DNA of 64,000 bases, from positions 14 to 64,013 of the forward strand of contig CANQTE010000001.1 of NCBI GenBank assembly GCA_947626695.1. The letters are read 5' to 3'. Positions 37,437 through 62,123 of the stretch are shown in pieces. The position numbers and the translations under genes were made by a program. This DNA is from an uncultured Bacilli bacterium (lineage in GTDB: Bacteria; Bacillota_I; Bacilli_A; RF39; UBA660). The notes under the pieces are model-generated. The model was not told the origin of the DNA, made no database searches, and saw only the letters and a program-made list of their open reading frames with translations. Positions within the stretch are counted from its first letter, which is position 1, and every line of letters starts with the position of its first letter.

Positions 37437-38561
37437 ATGCCAGTATATCAAGAAAATGAAAATAAATGGACCAAAGATGGTCGTAAATGGTACTTTAAAG
37501 TTTACTATACAGATATGTATGGAAAACGTAAAAGAAAAAGAAGTAAATTATATTTAATGAAAAGAGATGCAATAGAAGCCGAATCTGAGTTTCTAACAAA
37601 AATAAAAACTGTTGATGAAACAGATAATAATATAAAGTTCGATACTGTATATAATGAGTGGCTAGAATTTAAAAAATCAAAAGTAAAGGTTTCTACCTAC
37701 TATAAAATTGTAAAAACATTAAACAAGCATATTTTAGATTTTTTTAAATCTTTTAAATTACATAATATAAAATTGAACTCTATTAATCAATGGAGAATTA
37801 AATTAGTAAATCAAGGACTTGATATAGATTATACAAATATAATTATTAATTATTTAAAAGAAATTTTGAATTTTGCTAAAACTAATTATAATTTTGATTA
37901 TAAAATTATTGATAAAATTTATACTATTAGAGATGACACACCAAAATCTGAAAAAACTGATGCAGAATTGAACTTTTGGACATATAGCGAGTTTAAAAAA
38001 TTTATAAATAAGGTTGATGATAAATTTTACTATTTAATATTTAATTTCTTGTATTTTACAGGTTTAAGAATTGGAGAATTTTCCGCATTAACTTGGAAAG
38101 ATATTGACCTAAGAAATAAAACTGTTAGTATTACAAAAAGTTTAACCTGTAAAGTCATTGATAAAAAATATATGATTACAAGCCCTAAAACTTCTAATTC
38201 TATAAGAGTAATAGATTTAGATGATAATTTAATAAAATTGCTTAAAGAGCATAAAAACAATGAAAAAAATATTCTTGGATTTAATGAGAATATGTTTGTA
38301 TTCGGAAATGTAAAATATATTTCACAAACAACATTAAGGAGGCATATTGCAAATTATGCGAAATTAGCTAAAGTTAAATATATTTCAATACATGGGTTTA
38401 GACACTCTCATGTGAGCTTACTAATATATTTAGGCTGTGATGTAAGAGACGTAGCAAATAGAATTGGAGATACAGTACAAATAGTTGAAAGTACATATTA
38501 TCATATGTTTCCTAAAAAGAAAGAAAATGCAATAAAATTACTAAATAATTTAGAAAAATAG
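37437..38561 (+). CDS. int: Tyrosine site-specific integrase
   Basis: C-terminal catalytic signature (R...HGFRHSHVSLL...Y). It is adjacent to the tRNA attachment site. Confidence 0.85.
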   Translation: MPVYQENENKWTKDGRKWYFKVYYTDMYGKRKRKRSKLYLMKRDAIEAESEFLTKIKTVDETDNNIKFDTVYNEWLEFKKSKVKVSTYYKIVKTLNKHILDFFKSFKLHNIKLNSINQWRIKLVNQGLDIDYTNIIINYLKEILNFAKTNYNFDYKIIDKIYTIRDDTPKSEKTDAELNFWTYSEFKKFINKVDDKFYYLIFNFLYFTGLRIGEFSALTWKDIDLRNKTVSITKSLTCKVIDKKYMITSPKTSNSIRVIDLDDNLIKLLKEHKNNEKNILGFNENMFVFGNVKYISQTTLRRHIANYAKLAKVKYISIHGFRHSHVSLLIYLGCDVRDVANRIGDTVQIVESTYYHMFPKKKENAIKLLNNLEK

Positions 38562-38593: not shown

Positions 38594-38646
38594 GAAAAAA
38601 CTCCCTAAAATAGGGAGATTAAATCCACATGGCGGAGTAGAGAGGA
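38594..38646. repeat. attR core, overlapping the tRNA-Ser 3' end
   Basis: Perfect 53-bp copy of 12..64. It overlaps the 3' end of the minus-strand tRNA at 38630..38646. Confidence 0.85.
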
Positions 38647-38722
38647 TTTGAACCTCCGCGCCAGCATTCGCCGACCTAGATCCTTAGCAGGGACCCCTCT
38701 TCAGCCTCTTGAGTACTACTCC
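38630..38722 (-). tRNA. tRNA-Ser (anticodon GCU), long variable arm
   Basis: The reverse complement reads GGAGTAG...CUGCUAA...GGCGCGGAGGTTCAAATCCTCTCTACTCCGCCA. It has an acceptor stem, a T-arm GGTTCAAAT, the anticodon loop and an ~93-nt length. Confidence 0.8.
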
Positions 38723-44421: not shown

Positions 44422-45351
44422 GTGTTATTATATGCCCTCGAAAGGAGGAAATTCATGAAAATGAAAGAAAAAGTCTTTTTAAAGTTAAGTGATGATTTAC
44501 TATTTAAGGAAGCTTTTGCTCACCCAGATAATCGAGATATACTTATTTACTTTTTATCATGTTTTACTGACTTTACTAAAGAATATTTAGAAAGTGTAGA
44601 TATAAAAGTAGAATATGAAAGTGTTTTAACTAAAACAAAAAGTAACGATAGGTCTGTTCGAGGTGACGTCATAATCAAGTTTGATGGGCATATAATAAAT
44701 TTAGAAGCTTATTCTTCATTTGATAGAAATTCTTTTGATAAATCTATGTATTATATTATGAGAATATTCTCGACTCGAACTAATCGAGGAAAGAAAAGTT
44801 ATAAAAAACTAGAGAAAGTAATTCAAATAAATATAGTAGACGATGTAACACCAAAAGATTTAATCGAAAAAATGGTAGAAAATACTATGTCAGTAAAAGA
44901 TGCTAAAAATAATGAAATATATTCAGATATATTTCAAATAAAATATTATAGGCTTGACACCTTGAAAAAAATGGTATATGATAAAAACAACTTAAAACAA
45001 AGATGGCTTAAATTTATTTGTGCAAAAACTGCCGAGGAAAGAAAGACAATAGCTAAAGGAGATGAATTGTTAATGAAATTTGATAATTGGTGTGAAGAAT
45101 ATGTCAATGACGAGCAAACAAAAAAGATTTTTGCAGATTGGGCTGATTATATTGCCGAGAACAAAGGTATAAGAAAAGGAATTGACATGGGAATTGCTCA
45201 AGGTGCTTTAGAAAAAGCTTATGAGATAGCTAGAAATATGTATAATAAAAATATGAATATTAAAGATATCATGGCTATAACAGAACTTTCCAAAAAAGAT
45301 ATAGCTAAAGCAACAGGTTTATCTATGAAAGAAATACAAAGTTTAGCATAA
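44422..45351 (+). CDS. Rpn (YhgA-like) family PD-(D/E)xK recombination-promoting nuclease/putative transposase
   Basis: The N-terminus DLLFKEAFAHPDNRDILIYFL is typical of the TIGR01784-type family. The C-terminal helical domain reads GIRKGIDMGIAQG...ITELSKKDIAKATGLSMKEIQSLA. Confidence 0.65.
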   Translation: MLLYALERRKFMKMKEKVFLKLSDDLLFKEAFAHPDNRDILIYFLSCFTDFTKEYLESVDIKVEYESVLTKTKSNDRSVRGDVIIKFDGHIINLEAYSSFDRNSFDKSMYYIMRIFSTRTNRGKKSYKKLEKVIQINIVDDVTPKDLIEKMVENTMSVKDAKNNEIYSDIFQIKYYRLDTLKKMVYDKNNLKQRWLKFICAKTAEERKTIAKGDELLMKFDNWCEEYVNDEQTKKIFADWADYIAENKGIRKGIDMGIAQGALEKAYEIARNMYNKNMNIKDIMAITELSKKDIAKATGLSMKEIQSLA

Positions 45352-45814: not shown

Positions 45815-46444
45815 TTAACTTGCACCAGCCGCAGCTGTCTCATTAACTTCATTTATAACAAAAAGTCTTAAACTTACTTTTCCAGAAATTTCATCCGTAA
45901 CTTTACTTTCGTCAACCCAAACTTGTAATTTTTTACTAGTCGTTTTGGCACCAGCATTTAAATTTCCGCTTTCTATTTGATAACCCCAACATTTACTACC
46001 CGCCGTCGTACCTTTAGCAGCACAACCAGTATTTACAGCAGATGTAGTCGCATCTATAGCAACTCCAGAAGCAATCGATGTAAGCAACTGCGCATTTCCA
46101 CCACCAACAGAAATTTTAATCTTACCTAAATCAACCGCATTACTATCATCCGCATATAAATAAAGCTTATATGAACTTGGTAAATTACTACTTGTATTTT
46201 CTATTACATAAGATAGACCAGTACTTGATTTTCCAGTTGCATCATCCGAAACATCAACACTTCCAAGTGCGGTTACACCCGTAATATTTACTTTTAAAGT
46301 TCCCGCGGTTATAACCTGGTTATTTGCATTCTTCTTTACATCAAAAAATACAGCATAACTAACACCCATCGCAGCCATTGCAACTAAAACAACCGCTATT
46401 GCAATAATTGTAGTTTGTTTCTTGATAATATCCTTTACTTTCAT
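45815..46444 (-). CDS. TasA/camelysin-family secreted protein with a SipW-cognate-class signal peptide
   Basis: The N-terminal TM is followed by YAVFFD...ITAGTLKV, matching the AxFxD...AGTL pattern. The body is Gly/Ser/Thr-rich and beta-type. Confidence 0.5.
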   Translation of the reverse strand: MKVKDIIKKQTTIIAIAVVLVAMAAMGVSYAVFFDVKKNANNQVITAGTLKVNITGVTALGSVDVSDDATGKSSTGLSYVIENTSSNLPSSYKLYLYADDSNAVDLGKIKISVGGGNAQLLTSIASGVAIDATTSAVNTGCAAKGTTAGSKCWGYQIESGNLNAGAKTTSKKLQVWVDESKVTDEISGKVSLRLFVINEVNETAAAGAS

Positions 46445-47067: not shown

Positions 47068-49884
47068 TTATTTAACAACAATATTTACTATTTTACCTTT
47101 AATAACTATTATTTTAACTATTTCTTTTCCTGTTATATATTTTTTTACATTTTCATTTTCTAAAGCTTTATTTTTAATACTTTCTTCATCTTCATTTATA
47201 GAAATAGTTACTTCCCCTCGAAGTTTACCATTTACTTGAACACCAATAGTTACTTCATTATCAACAGTTTTTTCTTCGTCATATTTAGGCCAAGATAGCT
47301 CTGCAATAGGTTTATAGCCTAATTCTTCATTTAATTCTTCCGTAATATGAGGAGCAATAGGATTTAATAAAATAAGTAATACTTGATAATCTTTTTTAGT
47401 TATTTCTTTTTTATCTTCATAGTTATTTGCTAAAATCATTAAACTAGATACTGCTGTATTATATTTCATTGTAGATAAATCATTAGTTACTTTTTTAATA
47501 GTTTTATGAATAATATTTTCTAAATCTTTAGAATATTCTTCACTTTGATTAACTTTATCTTTAAGTTTAATTATTCTATCTAAAAATCTCCTACAACCTT
47601 TAAGACCTTCATTACTCCATGGAATATCTTTTTCATAATCTCCCATAAACATTTCAAATAATCTTAAAGTATCTGCCCCATATTTATTTACAACATCAAC
47701 TGGATTAATTCCATTTCCTTTAGATTTACTTATTTTAGTTCCATCTTCCGCTAAAACCATACCATGAGCAACTCTCTTTTTAAATGGCTCTTTAGTAGGT
47801 ACTAAGCCTTGGTCATAAAGAAATTGATGCCAAAATCTCGCATAAAGTAAATGGCGAGTGGCGTGCTCCATACCACCATTATAATAATCAACCATACCCC
47901 AGTATTTAAGAGCATCTTTTCCCACAAACTCTTTATCATTATGAGGGTCCATATATCTTAACCAATACCAACTAGAACCAGCCCAATTAGGCATTGTATC
48001 TGTTTCTCTTTTCGCAGGTTTACCACATTTAGGACATGGAGTATTTACCCAATCTGTAATATTTGCAAGTGGGGATTCTCCTGTATCAGTAGGCTCATAA
48101 TGAGCAACAGTTGGTAATAATACAGGAAGTTTGTTTTCTGGAACAGGAACCCAACCACAAGTATCGCAATAAATCATAGGAATAGGTTCACCCCAGAATC
48201 TTTGACGAGAGAATATCCAATCTTGTAAACGATAATTAGTTGTTTTCTTACCAACATGATTTGCTTCTAAAAATTCTAACATTTTTTTAATTGCATCTTC
48301 TTTATTAAGACCATTTAGAAATTCAGAATTAATATGTTTACCATCACCAATCATAGCACCAGGATTTAGAGCATATAGATAAGTTTTCGCGTGAAGTTCA
48401 TCTTTAACTTCTTCTAATATAGTTTTTTTATCTACCCATTCACAATCAAATTTTTCATCATCATCTAGATTTTTAGAATCTTGTTCATAATTATCTAATT
48501 CAAAATATAGTCCTGTTGAATTAATATCAAAATATTTATCTTTATTATAAGCATAATAATGATGTTCAATAATTGGTAAAGTATATTTTAATGTTAAATT
48601 TTTATAACCTGTTTCTTCTTTTATTTCCCGTATAGCACAGTCTAAAGGACTTTCATTTTCTTTTATTGTTCCTCCAATAAATAAGCGTCCTCCTAATTCA
48701 TGCCAGTTAAGAGTTAAATATTTATCTTCTTTTTTATCATAGACAATAGCAACGATAGAATTTTTTTTGATTTCGTGCGTTTTAGGAGTACCTGTTTCTT
48801 CTGCTAGAACTTGAATAATTGGTATATTAAATTTCTTAGCAAAAGCATAATCTCGCTCATCATGAGCTGGAACAGCCATGATAGCACCAGTTCCATAACT
48901 TGCTAAAACATAATCACTTATCCATATTTCTATTTCTTTATTATTTACAGGATTAATAGCTACAAGTCCTTCTAATTTAACACCTGTTTTATCTTTAGTT
49001 ATATCTGTTCTTTCAATATCACTTTTTTCTTTAGCTTTTTCTTGATAAATATTTACTTCTTTAATATTTTTAATTTTATCTTTATATTTTTCTAAAAAAG
49101 GGTGTTCTGGAGACATAACCATAAAAGTTGCTCCAAATAAAGTATCACATCTTGTTGTAAATACTTTTAAGACATCTTCTGTTCCTTTAAGTTTAAAATC
49201 TACTTCAGCACCAATGCTTTTACCTATCCAATTTATTTGAGCAGTTTTAATTTTTTCTTCAAATTCTGTATCTTTAAGACCATCAAGTAACCTTTCAGCA
49301 TAATCACTCATTCTAAGTATCCATTGTGATTTTAACTTTTTAGTTACTTTAGAGCCACATCTTTCACATACTCCTCCAGCAGCATCTTCATTTGAAAGAC
49401 CTGTTTTACAATTAGGACACCAATTTATTTCTTTTTCACCTTTATAGGCCATACCTTTTTTATAAAATTGTAAAAATTGCCATTGGGTCCATTTATAATA
49501 TTCAGGGTCTGTTGTAGAAAATTCTCTTGACCAATCAAAGGACATACCTAAAGATTTTATTTGTCCTTTAAAAGTTTTAATATTTTCTCTTACAGCATCC
49601 TCAGGATAAATATGATTTTTTATGGCATATTGTTCTGCTGGAGCCCCAAAAGCATCCCAACCCATAGGAAATAAAACATTATAGCCTTGTAACCTTTTCA
49701 TTCTTGCCATGGCATCTAATGCGGAATAACTCCTAACATGACCAACATGTAAGCCAGAACCACTAGGATATGGAAACTCTACTAAAATATAATACTTTTC
49801 TTTAGTTCCTCCATTTTGAGCTTCAAAATAATGATTTTCTTCCCATTTTTTTTGCCATTTCTTTTCAATTTCAATATTATTCAT
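47068..49884 (-). CDS. leuS: Leucyl-tRNA synthetase carrying an inserted Nudix hydrolase domain
   Basis: HVGH class-I motif, editing-domain motifs (AVPAHDERDYAFAKK) and KMSKS-region equivalents are all present. At 938 aa it is ~130 aa longer than typical bacterial LeuS, because of an insertion carrying a complete Nudix box. Confidence 0.9.
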   Translation of the reverse strand: MNNIEIEKKWQKKWEENHYFEAQNGGTKEKYYILVEFPYPSGSGLHVGHVRSYSALDAMARMKRLQGYNVLFPMGWDAFGAPAEQYAIKNHIYPEDAVRENIKTFKGQIKSLGMSFDWSREFSTTDPEYYKWTQWQFLQFYKKGMAYKGEKEINWCPNCKTGLSNEDAAGGVCERCGSKVTKKLKSQWILRMSDYAERLLDGLKDTEFEEKIKTAQINWIGKSIGAEVDFKLKGTEDVLKVFTTRCDTLFGATFMVMSPEHPFLEKYKDKIKNIKEVNIYQEKAKEKSDIERTDITKDKTGVKLEGLVAINPVNNKEIEIWISDYVLASYGTGAIMAVPAHDERDYAFAKKFNIPIIQVLAEETGTPKTHEIKKNSIVAIVYDKKEDKYLTLNWHELGGRLFIGGTIKENESPLDCAIREIKEETGYKNLTLKYTLPIIEHHYYAYNKDKYFDINSTGLYFELDNYEQDSKNLDDDEKFDCEWVDKKTILEEVKDELHAKTYLYALNPGAMIGDGKHINSEFLNGLNKEDAIKKMLEFLEANHVGKKTTNYRLQDWIFSRQRFWGEPIPMIYCDTCGWVPVPENKLPVLLPTVAHYEPTDTGESPLANITDWVNTPCPKCGKPAKRETDTMPNWAGSSWYWLRYMDPHNDKEFVGKDALKYWGMVDYYNGGMEHATRHLLYARFWHQFLYDQGLVPTKEPFKKRVAHGMVLAEDGTKISKSKGNGINPVDVVNKYGADTLRLFEMFMGDYEKDIPWSNEGLKGCRRFLDRIIKLKDKVNQSEEYSKDLENIIHKTIKKVTNDLSTMKYNTAVSSLMILANNYEDKKEITKKDYQVLLILLNPIAPHITEELNEELGYKPIAELSWPKYDEEKTVDNEVTIGVQVNGKLRGEVTISINEDEESIKNKALENENVKKYITGKEIVKIIVIKGKIVNIVVK
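48361..48801 (-). other. Nudix hydrolase domain inserted in the LeuS editing-domain region (residues ~362-508)
   Basis: GGTIKENESPLDCAIREIKEETGY fits the Nudix box GX5EX7REUXEEXGU exactly. The insert lies between ...NIPIIQV and GDGKHINSEFLNGL, which are contiguous in ordinary LeuS. Confidence 0.7.
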
Positions 49885-55371: not shown

Positions 55372-55845
55372 CTATTTTAAATATTTAGGACTATCTATCC
55401 TACCAAGTAGATAATCTGCACTTATATTATATTTTTTACAAATAGTATAAAGAAAGGGAGTTGCTATTAAGTTTCTACCTTTTTCATAAAAAGCTATATT
55501 AGAAAAAGTAGTATTTAAAATGTTTGCTAATTTAACTTGAGTTAAATTTTGTTCTTTTCTAAATTCTTTTAATCTATTACCTGATTTTATTTCATCTATC
55601 TTTTTACTAGAATTAGAATAATTTTTTATAGAAGATAATTCAAATAAATAATCTATGGAAATATTAAAAAAATTGCATATATCATTTAAATGTTTAACTG
55701 GAATAATTTTATCTTGAAGCTCATAACAAGTATAAGTTCTTCGAGAAATATTTAAAATATCTGCAATTTCCTTTTGTGTGATTTTTCTCTTATCATTACT
55801 ATATTCTCTCAATTCTTTTAATCTTTCGCCATAGTTCATTATCAA
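55372..55845 (-). CDS. Transcriptional regulator with two tandem XRE-type HTH domains
   Basis: Two HTH segments (ITQKEIADILNISRRT and LTQVKLANILNTTFSNI). Confidence 0.6.
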   Translation of the reverse strand: MIMNYGERLKELREYSNDKRKITQKEIADILNISRRTYTCYELQDKIIPVKHLNDICNFFNISIDYLFELSSIKNYSNSSKKIDEIKSGNRLKEFRKEQNLTQVKLANILNTTFSNIAFYEKGRNLIATPFLYTICKKYNISADYLLGRIDSPKYLK

Positions 55846-55991: not shown

Positions 55992-56080
55992 TTTTCTTGA
56001 CATTTGCTATTTTTAAGTTTATAATTTAAATATAAATTAGAAATTTCTAATATTATTGATAATTAGAAAGAAAGGTTGAT

Positions 56081-57409
56081 ATGAAATTAGAAAAGTTAAG
56101 TAAGGGAAGATTTATTAAAGCTAGTATTATAGTTTTAGTAGTAATAAGTATATTTGGAGTTATATTTATAAATAGAAGTAAGGCTAAGTATAGAGTAACT
56201 CAAAGTATTCAAATAGTTAATGGTGAAGTTAATTATACTAACCCTGATTTTAGTATGCTAGGAGTAAAATTACAAAGTGCTAAAGGAAGTAGTGATTATG
56301 TTTCGGCTAGTAATAATGAAGTGCCTGCAAGTGGTTATAAATTAAAGCCTTTAGGTGATAGTGCAACTGATAGTTATTGTACTATTAATGGAGAAAAAGA
56401 TAATACAGGTATTAGCATTACTTATGAAAACGGAACTGTGACTTTTAAAGGTATTAAAAAACAAGGAACTAGGTGCTATTTGTTTTTTGACCTACAGACA
56501 GACCAAACTGGGACAGAATTATTAGGAAAGTATACCGTAAATAGTACAAGTGAGGGATGTCCTAATTATGAAGATGCACCATCAGTAACAAGTGTAAAAT
56601 CTTCAAAAAGTTTATTATGTAAGGGAAAAGATGATTTTGGAGATACTTATTATTTTAGAGGAAACCCAACAAATAACTGGGTTAAAATTGGAAATTTCTA
56701 CTGGAGAATAATAAGATTTAATGGTAATGGTAGTATAAGATTAATATATTCTGGAAATGGTAAAGCTGAAACAAGTGGAACAGGTACACAGATAAGTACT
56801 TCTGCATATCATTCACAAGATAATAGTGCAAATTATGTAAAATATATGAACGGTAGTACAGATAGTACCATAAAAGGTGTATTAGATAGTTGGTATAATA
56901 CTAACTTAAAGAGCACTTATGGAAGTAAGATGGATGGAAGTGTAGGTTTCTGTAATGATGCTGATAACGGAACATATTCTGGTGGTACACAATATTTTAA
57001 ACCATATGATAGAATAGCAACTAATAAAAAACCAACGTTTAAATGTGGAACACCAACAACTAACTTATTTACAACAAGTGGAGGTACAAAAGGTAATCAA
57101 AAATTAACAAACCCAATAGGTTTAATTACGATTGACGAAGTAAGTTTTGCGGGTGGACTTTATGATACAGCTAATTCAGGTTATTATTTATATACTAATA
57201 GTGCATACTGGACAATGTCTCCGTGTTACTTTAATGGCGGTCGCGCGCGCGTGTTCATTGTGGGTAGCAATGGTACCCTCTACCCCAGCAACTATGTGGG
57301 CGACACGTTGGGTGTGCGCCCAGTAATAAATCTGAAGGCTGATACACTGTTTAAAACAGCATCAGAAGTTGATAAAGGGACAGCTGATAATCCATATATA
57401 GTGCAATAA
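56081..57409 (+). CDS. Secreted, membrane-anchored protein with a C-terminal DUF1566/C-type-lectin-like domain
   Basis: N-terminal TM. The C-terminus reads GLITIDEV...YWTMSP...GVRPV, resembling the WRLPTIxEL...YWSST...VRCVR pattern of DUF1566 (Lcl C-terminal) domains. Confidence 0.4.
   Translation: MKLEKLSKGRFIKASIIVLVVISIFGVIFINRSKAKYRVTQSIQIVNGEVNYTNPDFSMLGVKLQSAKGSSDYVSASNNEVPASGYKLKPLGDSATDSYCTINGEKDNTGISITYENGTVTFKGIKKQGTRCYLFFDLQTDQTGTELLGKYTVNSTSEGCPNYEDAPSVTSVKSSKSLLCKGKDDFGDTYYFRGNPTNNWVKIGNFYWRIIRFNGNGSIRLIYSGNGKAETSGTGTQISTSAYHSQDNSANYVKYMNGSTDSTIKGVLDSWYNTNLKSTYGSKMDGSVGFCNDADNGTYSGGTQYFKPYDRIATNKKPTFKCGTPTTNLFTTSGGTKGNQKLTNPIGLITIDEVSFAGGLYDTANSGYYLYTNSAYWTMSPCYFNGGRARVFIVGSNGTLYPSNYVGDTLGVRPVINLKADTLFKTASEVDKGTADNPYIVQ
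57220..57355 (+). other. GC-rich, A-poor, NNC-codon-biased patch at the 3' end of the gene, candidate DGR variable repeat
   Basis: Codons GGC GGT CGC GCG CGC GTG TTC ... TAC CCC AGC AAC ... GGC GAC ACG ... GTG CGC occur in a genome that otherwise uses AT-ending codons. The patch covers exactly the YW...VRPV segment of the lectin-like fold. Confidence 0.35.
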
Positions 57410-57412
57410 TTT

Positions 57413-57490
57413 AACTTGCTTAAGTAGCTCTAATTCATACTTAAGCAAAAAATTTAGGTGATACTCTCACCTATTTTTATTTTTATCTAT
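57413..57490. terminator. Two hairpins between convergent genes
   Basis: TTGCTTAAGTA-gctctaattca-TACTTAAGCAA (11-bp perfect stem), then AGGTGA-tactc-TCACCT followed by a T-run. Confidence 0.5.
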
Positions 57491-57493
57491 TTG

Positions 57494-58750
57494 TTAATAA
57501 TCTAAACAACTATCATCTAGTAAAAAATTATATATACCCACTATAGTTATTCCATTATCGTCTTTTCTTGGTTTCATATCGGCTTTTACAATAATTATCT
57601 TTTTAAAAGAGTCGTTTATACTAATTAATGATTTTTTTTCTTGTTTTGCTTTTTCTTCTGTATCAATATTTAATGCTGATTGTATATAATATTTATTATC
57701 TCCCATTGTTGCAACAAAATCAACTTCATAATTTTTTCTTATAGTATTGCCATTTTTATTTTGAGTGGTAGTTTCCACTATACCTACATCTACATTATAA
57801 CCTCTAATTTTTAATTCATTATAAATAATATTTTCCATGATATGGTCCTCTTCTGTTTGTCTAAAATTTAGTCTAGCATTTCTAAGGCCTATATCTTCAA
57901 AATAGTATTTATATGGAGAATTAATATAATTTTTCCCTTTAATATCATATCTTTGGGCTTTACTAATAAGAAATGAATCTTCAAAATATTCAATATATTT
58001 ACTTATAGTTTTATCACTTATTGTTTTATTTTTTATACTTTTAAATGTATTTGATAATTTTATTGGATTAGAAAGTGAACCAATAGATGAAGATAAAATA
58101 TTTAATAGTTCGTTTAATTCTTCTTTATTTTTTATTTTATTATGTCTTTCTAAAATATCAGAAATATATACTTTTTCAAACAAAGATTTTAAATAGTCTT
58201 CTTTTCTTTTTTTAGTATTACATGATAATATAAAAGGCATACCACCATAATTATAGTAATCATCCCATGCTTGATAAATTGAACCATTGTAGGCACTAGT
58301 ATATTCTTTAAAACTAAGAGGAAAAACATGAATTTCGTCCCCTCTACCCCTAAATTCTGTAATAACATCAGTTGATAAAAATTTTGAATTACTGCCTGTT
58401 ACATATACATCTACATTTCTAATATGTAATAAACTATTTAAGACATCTTCAAATTCATTCATTAATTGTACTTCATCAATTAATATATAATATAATTTAT
58501 CATCTATTATTTTTGAGTTTATAAACTTAAGCATATTATCAGGATCTCTTAAATCTTTATAAATTCTATTATCTAAAGCTATATCAATTATATGACTTTT
58601 TTCTATTCCTTTATCAAGTAAATAATTATAAAATATATTAAATAGCAGAAAAGTTTTTCCCGCTCTCCGTAACCCTGTGATAACTTTAATAAGTCCATTT
58701 TCTTCTCTTGCTTTTAATTCATTTAAATAGTAATCTCTTTTTATTTCCAT
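57494..58750 (-). CDS. AAA-family ATPase (DUF4143-type ATP-binding protein)
   Basis: Walker A GLRRAGKT and Walker B ILIDEVQ, ~418 aa, the typical COG1373 architecture. Confidence 0.6.
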   Translation of the reverse strand: MEIKRDYYLNELKAREENGLIKVITGLRRAGKTFLLFNIFYNYLLDKGIEKSHIIDIALDNRIYKDLRDPDNMLKFINSKIIDDKLYYILIDEVQLMNEFEDVLNSLLHIRNVDVYVTGSNSKFLSTDVITEFRGRGDEIHVFPLSFKEYTSAYNGSIYQAWDDYYNYGGMPFILSCNTKKRKEDYLKSLFEKVYISDILERHNKIKNKEELNELLNILSSSIGSLSNPIKLSNTFKSIKNKTISDKTISKYIEYFEDSFLISKAQRYDIKGKNYINSPYKYYFEDIGLRNARLNFRQTEEDHIMENIIYNELKIRGYNVDVGIVETTTQNKNGNTIRKNYEVDFVATMGDNKYYIQSALNIDTEEKAKQEKKSLISINDSFKKIIIVKADMKPRKDDNGITIVGIYNFLLDDSCLDY

Positions 58751-59088: not shown

Positions 59089-59784
59089 TTAACTACTAAT
59101 AAACTTTATTAATAAAGGCCCTAATATTATTAATAACATAATAGGAATAAAGAATATAACACTTATAACACTTATTTTAGTAGGTAATTTAGCTATTTCC
59201 CCTTTTACTCTTAATATTTGTTTATTTCTTAAGAAATCTATTTCATTATATATAGCTTCTTTAATATTAGTACCATAATTACTTGCTTGAATCATATTTA
59301 ATATAGTATTATTTATTACTTCACTAGGTATTCTTTTTTTCATATTTTCTAAACTTTCATTTAAACTTTTACCTAATCTAACTTCTTTTAAAGTTATTTC
59401 AAACTCATGAGATATTTCTGAATCTACATTATTAATAGTTAATCTAAGAGCATTTTCTAAATTTCTTCCTCCCTCTAAAGTTAAAACTAATACTTCCATA
59501 AATAATATAGCTTCTTTTTCTAATTTTTCGCCTCTTTTTTTTATCTTATAATCTAAACATATTTTTTCAAAAAGAATATACGTTGTAATACATAATATAG
59601 GGCCCATAATAAAACCATATTTAAAATATATTAAACTAATAATTAATATAAGTATAGAGGTTAATACTCTCATATTTAAATATTTATAAACTAAACTTTT
59701 ATCATTTATTCCAAGTAATTTTAATTTATGTTCTACTCTTTTAATAGTATTTTTAGCATATATTTTAGAACTAATATCATCCAT
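59089..59784 (-). CDS. tadC: Tad pilus assembly protein TadC-like (T2SS F-domain)
   Basis: Polytopic membrane protein with GspF-type topology, downstream of the tadB-like gene. Confidence 0.55.
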   Translation of the reverse strand: MDDISSKIYAKNTIKRVEHKLKLLGINDKSLVYKYLNMRVLTSILILIISLIYFKYGFIMGPILCITTYILFEKICLDYKIKKRGEKLEKEAILFMEVLVLTLEGGRNLENALRLTINNVDSEISHEFEITLKEVRLGKSLNESLENMKKRIPSEVINNTILNMIQASNYGTNIKEAIYNEIDFLRNKQILRVKGEIAKLPTKISVISVIFFIPIMLLIILGPLLIKFISS

Positions 59785-60779
59785 TATAAATCTACCTCCA
59801 ATACTTTTTGAACTACTAATATATATAAAATATATAATAATATTATAAATATTAATAATATAATCCCTAAAGGTTCTTTAATCATTACTTCAAAATAACT
59901 AGGATTTAACATAAATATTAAACTAACTAATAAAAGAGGTAAAAATATTAATAATTTAAAGACAAACTGACTAGAAGCTGTTAAACTATTAAGTTCATTT
60001 TTTAAATTCTTTTTTTCAAAAATAGATTTTTCAATTAAAGAAAATACTTTAACTATATCTCCTCCTGTTTTATTAAGAAGAGTTAGAGAAGAAGAAATAT
60101 ATTTAGCGTCCTCTAATTTTACACGTTCATAAAATCTTTTAAAGACTAAATCTAATTCTAAACCATAAGTTATATCTAAATATATTTTTTTAAATTCATC
60201 TTGGATAGGTCCATCTAGTTCATCTTTAACTACTTCTACTGCTTGCATGATATTGCGACCACTTTTAAATGCACTATTCATAATAATTATAGCTTTTAAT
60301 AAATCATTTTCTACTATCTTTCTTTTTTTATTATAATTAATAGTTAAATATATATCTAAACTATAAAAACCAATTAAAAATATTAATAATAAAACTGGAA
60401 AATCTAATTTTATTTTATAAAAACTAGATATAACTATACTTAGTATAATACTTAATATACTAATTAATATCTTTAAAGAAACATAATCTATTTCATTATA
60501 TTTATCTTTATCTTTATATTCTATATATTTATTATATTTTAAACTATATTTACTTAAAAAAACTGAATGTTTAATAACTTGAGATATTTTTTTTATGAGC
60601 TTATTTTTTATATTAATTATTTTATCTAATAGAGAATAATTTTCTTTATCTAGATTAGAACTAATCGCATACTCGCCTATTCTTTTTTCTAATTTTAAAG
60701 TATGAGAAAGACGAAGTAAATACCATATTACTCCTAAAATAATAACTATAATTAATATTTTTATTATATTAAAAGCCAT
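59784..60779 (-). CDS. tadB: TadB-like inner-membrane platform protein
   Basis: Membrane protein of T2SS-F type, paired with tadC. Confidence 0.55.
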   Translation of the reverse strand: MAFNIIKILIIVIILGVIWYLLRLSHTLKLEKRIGEYAISSNLDKENYSLLDKIINIKNKLIKKISQVIKHSVFLSKYSLKYNKYIEYKDKDKYNEIDYVSLKILISILSIILSIVISSFYKIKLDFPVLLLIFLIGFYSLDIYLTINYNKKRKIVENDLLKAIIIMNSAFKSGRNIMQAVEVVKDELDGPIQDEFKKIYLDITYGLELDLVFKRFYERVKLEDAKYISSSLTLLNKTGGDIVKVFSLIEKSIFEKKNLKNELNSLTASSQFVFKLLIFLPLLLVSLIFMLNPSYFEVMIKEPLGIILLIFIILLYILYILVVQKVLEVDL

Positions 60780-60791
60780 AAAAACTCCAAT

Positions 60792-62123
60792 CTATTCATT
60801 TATATTAAATATATCATCTATATCTGTTATACCTCTTGCTTTTATCTTTTTATATACTTCTGGTAATGTTTTATATTGGATAAATTCACCATCTACTTCC
60901 CCTTTTAGAGTTAAACCTTTTTGTTTAAAAGCAAATATTTCTTTTAATTTTATTTCCCCATTATTAAAGCCTTCTAATTCAGAAATACTAGTAATTTTTC
61001 TTTTTCCATCACTCATTCTTTCAATATTAATAACTAAATCTATGGCACTAACAATATATTCTCTTATAGCTTTAATTGGTATTTCTACTCCACCCATTAG
61101 AACCATTGTTTCTAGTCTATTTAAAGCGTCTTGGGCACCATTCGCGTGCATTGTTGTAAGTGAACCATCATGACCAGTATTCATGGCTTGTAACATATCA
61201 AATGCTTCTTTTCCACGAACCTCTCCTACTATTATTCTATCAGGCCTCATACGAAGAGAATTAATAACTAAGTCTCTAATTGTAATTTCTTTATCTTTAC
61301 TGTAATTAAATGATTTTGTTTCAAGTGATATAACATGATTTTGTTTTAATTTTAATTCAGCAGCATCTTCAATAGTTATTATTCTTTCATTATCACTAAT
61401 AAAACCACTTAAAATATTTAAAAGAGTAGTTTTTCCAGAACCTGTTCCACCGCACACAATCATATTACATTTACCACGTACTGCAGCATCTAAAAATCTT
61501 GCCATATAAGGAGTAAGAGTTCCAATTCTAATTAATTCATCTATATTATTCATGGATTCTTTAAATTTTCTAATTGTAACGACAGGGCCTTTAGTAGATA
61601 AAGGAGGTATTACAGCATTTATTCTTGAACCATCAAGTAATCTAGAATCTACCATGGGGTTACTCGCGTCTATTGTTCTTCCTAAAGGTTGAATTAATCT
61701 TTGAACTGTTCTTATAATATGTTCATCATTTATAAAAGAAACGCTTTCATCTTTAACTAATACTCCATCTATTTCAATATATATTTCATTAGGAGAATTA
61801 ACCATTATTTCTGTAACATTTTTACTATTTAAAAGTTCTGTTAAAGGTCCGTATCCACTTATTTCATTATCTATTAAATTAAATAAATGACTTCTTTCTA
61901 AATTAGATAAATCATAGCCTTCAAGTTTTTTATCTATCTCATTATTTATCCATTCATTTAAACTTATATCATTTGGCATTTCATTATCTATTAAATCTTC
62001 TACTATTTCTGTTCTTAATTTATCAAGTAATTTTTTATCTTTAAATATTTCATAATCATTTAATATTCTTATATCTTTATCTTTTATTTTAATATCAAAA
62101 GCACTTCTTAAACTTTGTCTCAT
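60792..62123 (-). CDS. cpaF: CpaF/TadA secretion ATPase
   Basis: Walker [11 protein letters not shown] plus VirB11/CpaF-type Asp and His boxes. Confidence 0.85.

Follow-up and report, generated by a model that had tools for sequence, protein, structure and literature searches.

A probable variable region of a diversity-generating retroelement in a lectin-like surface protein gene of an uncultured Bacilli bacterium

Within a 64,000-nucleotide (nt) stretch of the genome of an uncultured Bacilli bacterium (contig CANQTE010000001.1 of assembly GCA_947626695.1; hereafter the window, with positions counted from its first letter), a gene encoding a lectin-like protein carries near its 3' end a short patch whose composition is foreign to the AT-rich DNA around it. 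What wrote this patch, and is it still being written? A preliminary description, made from the letters alone, had proposed that it is the variable region (VR) of a target gene of a diversity-generating retroelement (DGR), in which sequence copied from a template repeat (TR) is mutagenised at adenines by a reverse transcriptase (RT). Following up this proposal in the window and in related genomes, we conclude with high confidence that positions 57215-57325 are the VR of a DGR target gene. Very probably the patch encodes the hypervariable tip with which a lectin-like surface protein binds, and the RT and template genes that serve it lie elsewhere in the genome.

An adenine-depleted patch in a lectin-like gene

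The mean GC content of the window is 26.7%, and at 57185-57387 it reaches 0.56-0.59 when counted per 100-120 nt, so that a GC-rich, adenine-poor and NNC-biased patch is indeed found where the preliminary description had placed it. Across the 87 nt of codons 382-410 (57224-57310) the base frequencies are A=0.17, C=0.25, G=0.30 and T=0.28, against A=0.40, C=0.10, G=0.20 and T=0.30 in the rest of the open reading frame (ORF). At third codon positions A is 0.00 in the patch and 0.39 in the rest of the gene, and C is 0.48 against 0.05; by codon position, adenine in the VR stands at 0.26, 0.23 and 0.00. The anomaly is adenine-specific and strand-specific and is not a general shift in GC content. Among 15,092 sliding windows of 29 codons, taken over 43 ORFs of at least 150 amino acids, a third-position A of 0 or C of at least 0.4 was seen solely at ~57,200.

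A patch of this kind might be an artefact of composition, produced by selection for a Gly/Arg/Ala/Val-rich peptide, by local codon bias or by chance, and amino-acid composition does account for another GC-rich coding segment of the window (45978-46110). For the patch we consider this explanation highly improbable. The binomial expectation for a complete lack of third-position A is 2e-7 per sliding window, and nowhere else in the window is there such a patch. The synonymous choices themselves deviate, with CGC used over AGA, GGC or GGT over GGA and GTG over GTA, and with CCC and CTC as well, and because the anomaly shows in synonymous codon choice the amino-acid composition fails to explain it, whereas 45978-46110 keeps ordinary T- and A-ending codons. 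The VR carries the codon imprint of an AAY-rich template, namely adenine-free third positions and NNC/NNT codons.

Besides the patch, 45978-46110 and a tRNA-Ser gene (38630-38722) are the only stretches in the window to exceed 45% GC per 100 nt. Both were tried as candidate templates and rejected, the one being an Ala/Gly/Thr-rich protein segment with ordinary codons and the other a tRNA gene beside a phage integrase. The protein segment belongs to a small secreted or anchored protein encoded on the reverse strand (45815-46444), and its codons are not DGR-like.

The AlphaFold2 model of the target protein has a mean pLDDT of 77 and a pTM of 0.70, with pLDDT values of 85-98 over most of the C-terminal domain and low values for residues 1-56. 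The fold is that of a C-type lectin, with structural matches that include the DGR target TvpA, and the VR lies at the C-terminal end of this domain, ~27 codons before the stop; both the peptide quoted in the preliminary description and its near-C-terminal position were correct. That description had also named a C-type-lectin/DUF1566-type target. The lectin fold stands, but neither the family hidden Markov model (HMM) nor close structural identity places the protein in DUF1566 or the Lcl C-terminal domain, and its domain is instead DUF6273-like. In a search of viral structures (BFVD) the top matches were phage proteins named DUF6273, the Pfam family of that name is matched by 14 of the 27 closest homologues (best E 8.7e-5), and several homologues carry a precomputed DUF6273 tag. 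DUF6273 is known as a C-type-lectin-like DGR target domain with its VR at the C-terminus (PMC11792537, PMC10743442).

More than 4,190 homologues of the target protein were found. Among the 27 closest (55-82% identity) nearly all variation falls between YWTMSP and GVRPVINL, a span of ~30 residues. When species-representative genomes were scanned, 355 relatives were found, of which 80 were kept; nearly all of these are from metagenome-assembled genomes (MAGs) of uncultured gut Bacilli (rabbit, Hadza, 'Mycoplasma sp. CAG:776'), and one MAG is labelled Ruminococcus sp. Two MAGs among the relatives listed hold at least 13 family loci each. Third-position A is absent in 22 of 92 family VR modules, and the others form a continuum to ordinary composition. 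Loci from relatives are designated below by L numbers.

Template RNA genes and a reverse transcriptase cassette in relatives

In several loci VR-like sequences also occur outside the family genes. At L040 a non-coding copy lies 300-400 nt downstream of the gene and aligns to its VR without gaps; the two differ at 16 positions, and all 16 are template adenines (Fisher p 1.8e-9; A changed to G 7, to C 5 and to T 5). Judged on sequence, this pair carries the defining signature of a DGR and indicates that this is a genuine family of DGR targets.

The existence of such copies bears on a further explanation, in which the patch is a recombination mosaic produced by gene conversion from a GC-richer homologue or paralogue, with the YWTMSP and GVRPVINL flanks as anchors and no reverse transcription. 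Many paralogues with conserved flanks are present per genome, and paralogues show indels within the patch. However, adenine alone is depleted, on the coding strand only and with T unchanged, whereas import from a GC-rich donor should reduce A and T alike, and there are AAC-rich non-coding copies of the template that follow the adenine rule. Nor did we find a second copy of the VR in the window (blastn, word size 7, query 57150-57420) or VR-like DNA in the phage collection (blastn 'distant', VR query). We therefore regard a mosaic as quite unlikely.

In all, ~35 template elements were assembled from 10 genomic and ~25 metagenomic copies (Table 1). In 23 in-frame templates the frequencies of adenine at codon positions 1, 2 and 3 are 0.44, 0.44 and 0.02, AAC and AAT are the dominant codons, and 1 of 712 codons is mutable to a stop. 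The elements are ~300 nt long, are often found in tandem (5 in 40 kb of one MAG) and have a common architecture, with a TATAAT box, the leader GGTTAATCT, the template from GTCTCCG to GGTGTGCGCCCA, the motif ATATCC, a conserved spacer, a long hairpin and a T-run. The predicted transcript is ~300 nt long, with a putative start at GGUUAAUCU and a putative end at the terminator hairpin. RNAalifold gave a fold of four structural elements: a 10-bp helix of leader with spacer that encloses the template, a 6-bp helix of AGGAUA with the bases that directly follow the template, an internal hairpin and the terminator hairpin. Over 27 distinct copies 97.8% of cells pair, compared with 33-45% when the partners are slid, and double changes occur in 24 of 39 pairs, compared with 5-11 in the slid controls; none of 500 shuffles reached the observed values. 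The predicted template-spacer fold is supported by this covariation. No Rfam family corresponds to the template element, for which there were sub-threshold chance matches only, and a search of the window with Rfam returned nothing at gathering thresholds. Two matches to the spacer motif in viral contigs were rejected as chance, as neither fits the template profile.

An nhmmer profile built from 10 template elements found no full element in the window. Its sole match there was to 57213-57325 (E 7.7e-12), at profile positions 64-178, which are the template part. The preliminary description had given 57220-57355 as the limits of the patch; the location holds, and the 3' limit runs ~30 nt past the template-homologous DNA.

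The template elements stand in varied housekeeping contexts, and their recurrent neighbours are family genes, a YhcG/DUF1016-like gene, XRE regulators and prepilin-like genes. The YhcG/DUF1016-like (PD-(D/E)XK) gene, of ~300-320 amino acids, lies directly upstream of templates in 7 loci (for example L061 8310-9218 and L113 5975-6931) and could be either a hitch-hiker or a functional partner. The window has a PDDEXK_2 (Rpn-type 'transposase') gene at 44422-45351 on the forward strand, and an ORF after the tandem templates of L040 (2797-3318) resembles it by eye alone.

Where, then, is the RT? In the 64-kb window neither an RT nor an Avd was found, by Pfam on ORFs of at least 150 amino acids or by phmmer with the BPP-1 proteins Brt and Avd. 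Together with the negative blastn and nhmmer searches for a template repeat, this agrees with the absence of both from the window that had been noted before. Among 3,641 ORFs phmmer likewise gave no match to Brt or Avd, an RT was never seen beside a template element among the loci examined, and a regular expression for RT motifs found no match over all loci. The last negative is meaningful, because the expression would have matched the RT that was found later.

That RT lies in a separate cassette (Table 1). L125 is a contig of a close relative; it shares its sample of origin with L002 and L003, and the family proteins of these two are 57-72% identical to that of the window. The gene order at L125 is a family gene, a MYG1-like gene, a 135-residue MutS-domain-I protein, bAvd (PF22296) and a 370-residue RVT_1 protein with the RT motifs IGNMTSQ and YMDD. 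The RT of the relatives aligns over its full length to BPP-1 Brt (E 6e-28), and it has 3,076 homologues at E<=1e-20. On 24 contigs read there was one RT homologue, synteny was conserved at all 5 of the 5 places shown, and the order at the RT locus is PheRS, cassette, DUF378, FtsEX, TilS and FtsH. In L126-L131 the cassette has neither a template element nor a VR within 10 kb; at L125 there is a target 1.6 kb upstream of the cassette, without a template. The motif AGTTTAATCT, which resembles the template leader GGTTAATCT, occurs at L125 just upstream of the MutS-like gene (2664) and downstream of the RT (4921), and may reflect chance or a shared recognition or promoter-proximal motif.

A single MAG, GCA_023663235.1, holds all the parts. 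The RT cassette is on scaffold 6, scaffold 1 has a template gene and two targets, and scaffolds 2 and 8 have more targets; since these scaffolds differ, all three types of part occur unlinked in one genome. The preliminary description had allowed that the template might be remote, and in this lineage that is the rule, with RT cassette, template RNA genes and targets unlinked in the relatives. The 'orphan' VR is for this reason the normal state of a target here. The description's reading of the patch as a DGR target is borne out by variation in the family that is almost confined to the patch, by the adenine-only mismatches at L040 and by bAvd and RT genes in close relatives.

Table 1. Features of the target gene in the window, and template and reverse transcriptase loci in relatives (L numbers)
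Feature	Position	Strand	Remarks
Target gene	56081-57409	+	442-residue protein with N-terminal membrane anchor and lectin-like surface domain; from ORF list, homologues and AlphaFold2
Hydrophobic N-terminal anchor or signal segment, ~residues 1-40, IIVLVVISIFGVIFI	56081-56200	+	From the translation; membrane topology putative
DUF6273-like C-type-lectin-fold domain, ~residues 177-426	56609-57358	+	Limits approximate
VR, homologous to family template repeats, ATGTCTCCG to GGTGTGCGCCCAGTA	57215-57325	+	nhmmer template profile and template alignments
29 diversified codons, CYFNGGRARVFIVGSNGTLYPSNYVGDTL	57224-57310	+	Third positions adenine-free; hypervariable columns in the alignment of the 27 closest homologues
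3' junction: GC-rich GGTGTGCGCCCA (common to the template 3' end), then target-side flank GTAATAAATCTGAAGGCTGATAC	57311-57345	+	
Sigma-70-type promoter, TTGACA, 17 nt, TATAAT	55997-56025	+	Upstream of target gene; 12/12 consensus match; predicted
Intrinsic-terminator-like hairpin, bidirectional	57455-57473	.	Common to the convergent AAA_14/DUF4143 gene; consensus match; predicted
Double helix-turn-helix (HTH; XRE-type) regulator	55372-55845	-	Divergent from target gene; Pfam HTH_19/HTH_3 twice
Template RNA genes	L040 2112-2734; L061 5723-6348, 9227-9544; L062 7832-8465; L045 11467-11791		
Template RNA genes	L035 2902-3225; L077 2834-3166; L087-L121		L087-L121: ~25 more
MutS_I-like/bAvd/DGR-type RT cassette	L125 2723-4563; L126 9288-11128; L127-L131		MYG1-like exonuclease gene precedes

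Current activity of the variable region

The VR in the window carries a 5' anchor of the template type. At its 3' end the GGTGTGCGCCCA segment is identical to the template 3' ends, and the junction as a whole is an exact match to a 35-nt consensus. Over 90 modules the distance of the junction from this consensus rises as adenine depletion is lost (Spearman 0.39, p 1.6e-4), and there is one fixed difference, CCCAATA in the template against CCCAGTA in every VR. On sequence alone we take 57311-57345 to be a candidate homing-recognition site, similar to an initiation of mutagenic homing (IMH) site. Because the window VR retains the exact junction, as adenine-depleted members of the family typically do, it seems to be a competent target. 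An imperfect inverted repeat at ~57336-57366 is not conserved as a downstream hairpin in other family members, by inspection and with no formal test.

We lean towards a VR that is still being rewritten. In a genome of 27% GC, adenine-free third positions and rare codons should erode without rewriting, and for this reason we favour a still-competent target over a relic. A relic would be the product of past DGR writing, its RT or cognate template since lost or silenced and its sequence frozen. The window, with no RT and no template in 64 kb, is what a relic would give, and the continuum of family VRs from adenine-free to ordinary composition suggests that erosion does occur after rewriting stops. 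There are also Treponema isolates documented to have targets and no core DGR (PMC4891356). Against a relic, third-position A is exactly 0, and CGC, GCG, CCC and CTC persist although AT-biased mutation should erode them. The exact 35-nt junction is kept, whereas decayed paralogues have lost theirs, and nothing can be read into the lack of RT and template in the window, given that these parts and the targets are unlinked in every one of the relatives examined. A relic is possible, but we think it doubtful.

Several further points weigh against our reading of a live VR served from elsewhere in the genome, and two of them would also suit a relic. First, the VRs of L003 (1-3170) and L004 (1-3149), from two samples, are identical within loci that are 99.8% identical over 10.3 kb. 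This is the one comparison of the same locus between samples. Here an HTH gene separates two family genes in tandem, and one VR is strongly adenine-depleted and still unchanged; the locus shows no sign of recent turnover. Second, the RT-bearing MAG GCA_023663235.1 contains four decayed VRs, and the L045 template seen in the same MAG was tried as their cognate and rejected, having 26-29 non-adenine mismatches with the two alignable VRs and no usable alignment with the other two. Among 32 templates and 45 VRs there is one perfect cognate pair, that of L040. For the window VR the best foreign template is L061a, which leaves 13 non-adenine mismatches and a one-codon indel. The VR differs from it at 18 of 32 A sites and at 13 of 73 non-A sites (odds ratio 5.9, p 1.4e-4), which is the pattern that a related but non-cognate template should give. 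A pattern tolerant of template adenine (each VR base or A) had no matches in viral contigs and none in genome contigs, not even to the VR itself, the source genome being outside the species-representative collection scanned. We infer from its relatives that the genome has a TR and an RT of its own. Finally, the window protein has no match to Pfam DUF6273 (PF19789) at any threshold, even E<=1, and since it is the homologues and the BFVD structures that match, we call it DUF6273-like and not a formal member.

If the VR is a live target, we would propose the following mechanism. Elsewhere in the genome a free-standing ~300-nt RNA gene would supply an AAC/AAT-rich TR with its structured spacer. 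A chromosomal cassette of bAvd and DGR-type RT, including a small MutS-domain-I protein, would copy this RNA into cDNA, with the RT misincorporating opposite template adenines, and the cDNA would replace the VR between the fixed 5' anchor ATGTCTCCG and the GC-rich 3' end GGTGTGCGCCCA. As an outcome up to ~15-17 codons could be rewritten on the ligand-binding face of a membrane-anchored surface protein of C-type-lectin fold. The foreign composition of the patch would be the imprint of a template that avoids adenine where variation is silent or harmful. For the lineage as a whole we cautiously favour a fully dispersed DGR, in which a template-less core-genome MutS-like/bAvd/RT cassette acts with several diverged template RNA genes on at least 13 membrane-anchored lectin-like targets, members being assigned to different templates, and in which the window gene is a live member.

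The neighbourhood of the target gene offers some further observations. The divergent double-HTH gene is also found upstream of homologues in L001, L002 and L123, and has a putative role in regulating the target. The AAA_14/DUF4143 ATPase gene that converges on the target (57494-58750, reverse strand) has a similar counterpart in L123 (9291-10547), 5 kb from a family gene; this proximity is probably coincidence. Small prepilin-like genes ('KGFTLIELL') follow family genes at L061 (11622-12579), L001 (11534-12503) and L117 (1048-1392), and in the window a Tad-type T2SSF/T2SSF/T2SSE operon (59089-62123) lies on the opposite strand 1.7 kb from the target gene. The target family may be part of a pilus-associated surface apparatus. 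Farther away, positions 1-38722 are a likely prophage with genes for a peptidase M23, a 1,914-residue MuF-domain protein, a portal, a terminase, SSB, ERF, a DnaB-like protein and an integrase (37437-38561), integrated beside the tRNA-Ser(GCT) gene; no DGR parts were found in it. An unusual fusion is seen in the leucyl-tRNA synthetase (47068-49884, reverse strand; 938 residues), where a NUDIX domain is inserted at residues 377-499, just after the editing domain.

Comparison with known systems

By itself the patch adds one target to those known for DGRs, with a type of domain that had been seen in gut phages before. The arrangement in which it is embedded has the look of a new variation on DGR architecture. 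In the literature we compared, we did not find described an RT cassette without any template, several diverged and independently terminated template RNA genes scattered in the chromosome, or membrane-anchored lectin-like targets that all belong to one expanded chromosomal family. The system would escape standard DGR finders, because they start at the RT and seek a template and a VR nearby, and here the cassette has no template. If our reading is true, DGR activity is under-counted in reduced-genome gut Bacilli, and the conserved template-spacer fold would be a natural compact RNA that the RT-Avd complex must recognise in trans. With several templates serving one family of receptors, bacteria would have moved some way toward a combinatorial repertoire of surface receptors.

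Single elements of the arrangement have precedents. Remote DGR targets are known from Treponema, where there are up to 7 and some lie more than 100 kb from the RT (PMC5758913), trans action between DGR loci has been described (PMC10907252), and so have two templates in one cassette (PMC6642488). In the Treponema denticola TvpA paralogues and the cellular DGRs of Lineage 4 (PMC5758913, PMC4891356) the core cassette holds RT, template and target together, with at most 7 non-adjacent targets. In contrast, here no template lies within 10 kb of the RT, and in L126-L131 no target does either; the templates are separate multi-copy RNA genes, and two MAGs have at least 13 family loci each.

The closest likeness in the use of the template is with Trichodesmium erythraeum, whose template has its own promoter, gives an abundant non-coding RNA of ~265 nt and serves at least 12 target genes in trans (PMC4143802). 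There, however, a single template lies directly downstream of the RT and the targets are FGE-sulfatase-type domains on kinases, whereas the templates in our relatives are unlinked to the RT, occur as several diverged copies per genome, often in tandem, and go with one expanded family of DUF6273-like membrane-anchored targets.

The DUF6273 targets of gut phages, in Faecalibacterium prophages (PMC11792537) and among the 'tentaclins' (PMC10743442), have the same domain type, the C-type-lectin fold and a C-terminal VR. They are receptor-binding proteins inside compact phage cassettes, whereas the window gene is chromosomal, lies outside the prophage at 1-38.6 kb, encodes a membrane-anchored protein and, as we propose, is served by an RT at a housekeeping locus. 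MutS-like accessory genes are known in some avd-containing DGRs (PMC5758913), and the MutS-like (MSL) cassettes of Architecture D, including the Legionella DGR, resemble the cassette of the relatives in combining a small MutS-like accessory protein, avd and RT. In the published architecture scheme such cassettes keep RT, template and target together, whereas the relatives' cassettes have no template within 10 kb, and in L126-L131 no target, and so fall outside Architecture D.

With the mtd/avd/TR/brt system of BPP-1 the family has in common adenine-only differences between TR and VR, AAC-rich template codons, a GC-rich shared 3' end, and a target of C-type-lectin fold with a C-terminal VR, and the relatives' RT, besides its similarity to Brt, conserves the SQ and YMDD motifs. 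BPP-1 differs in that its phage cassette is compact, serves a single target from a single template and has a spacer RNA contiguous with brt, whereas template and spacer are here predicted to form an independent terminated transcript. If true, the arrangement is a cellular, multi-template, multi-receptor repertoire system and not a single cassette.

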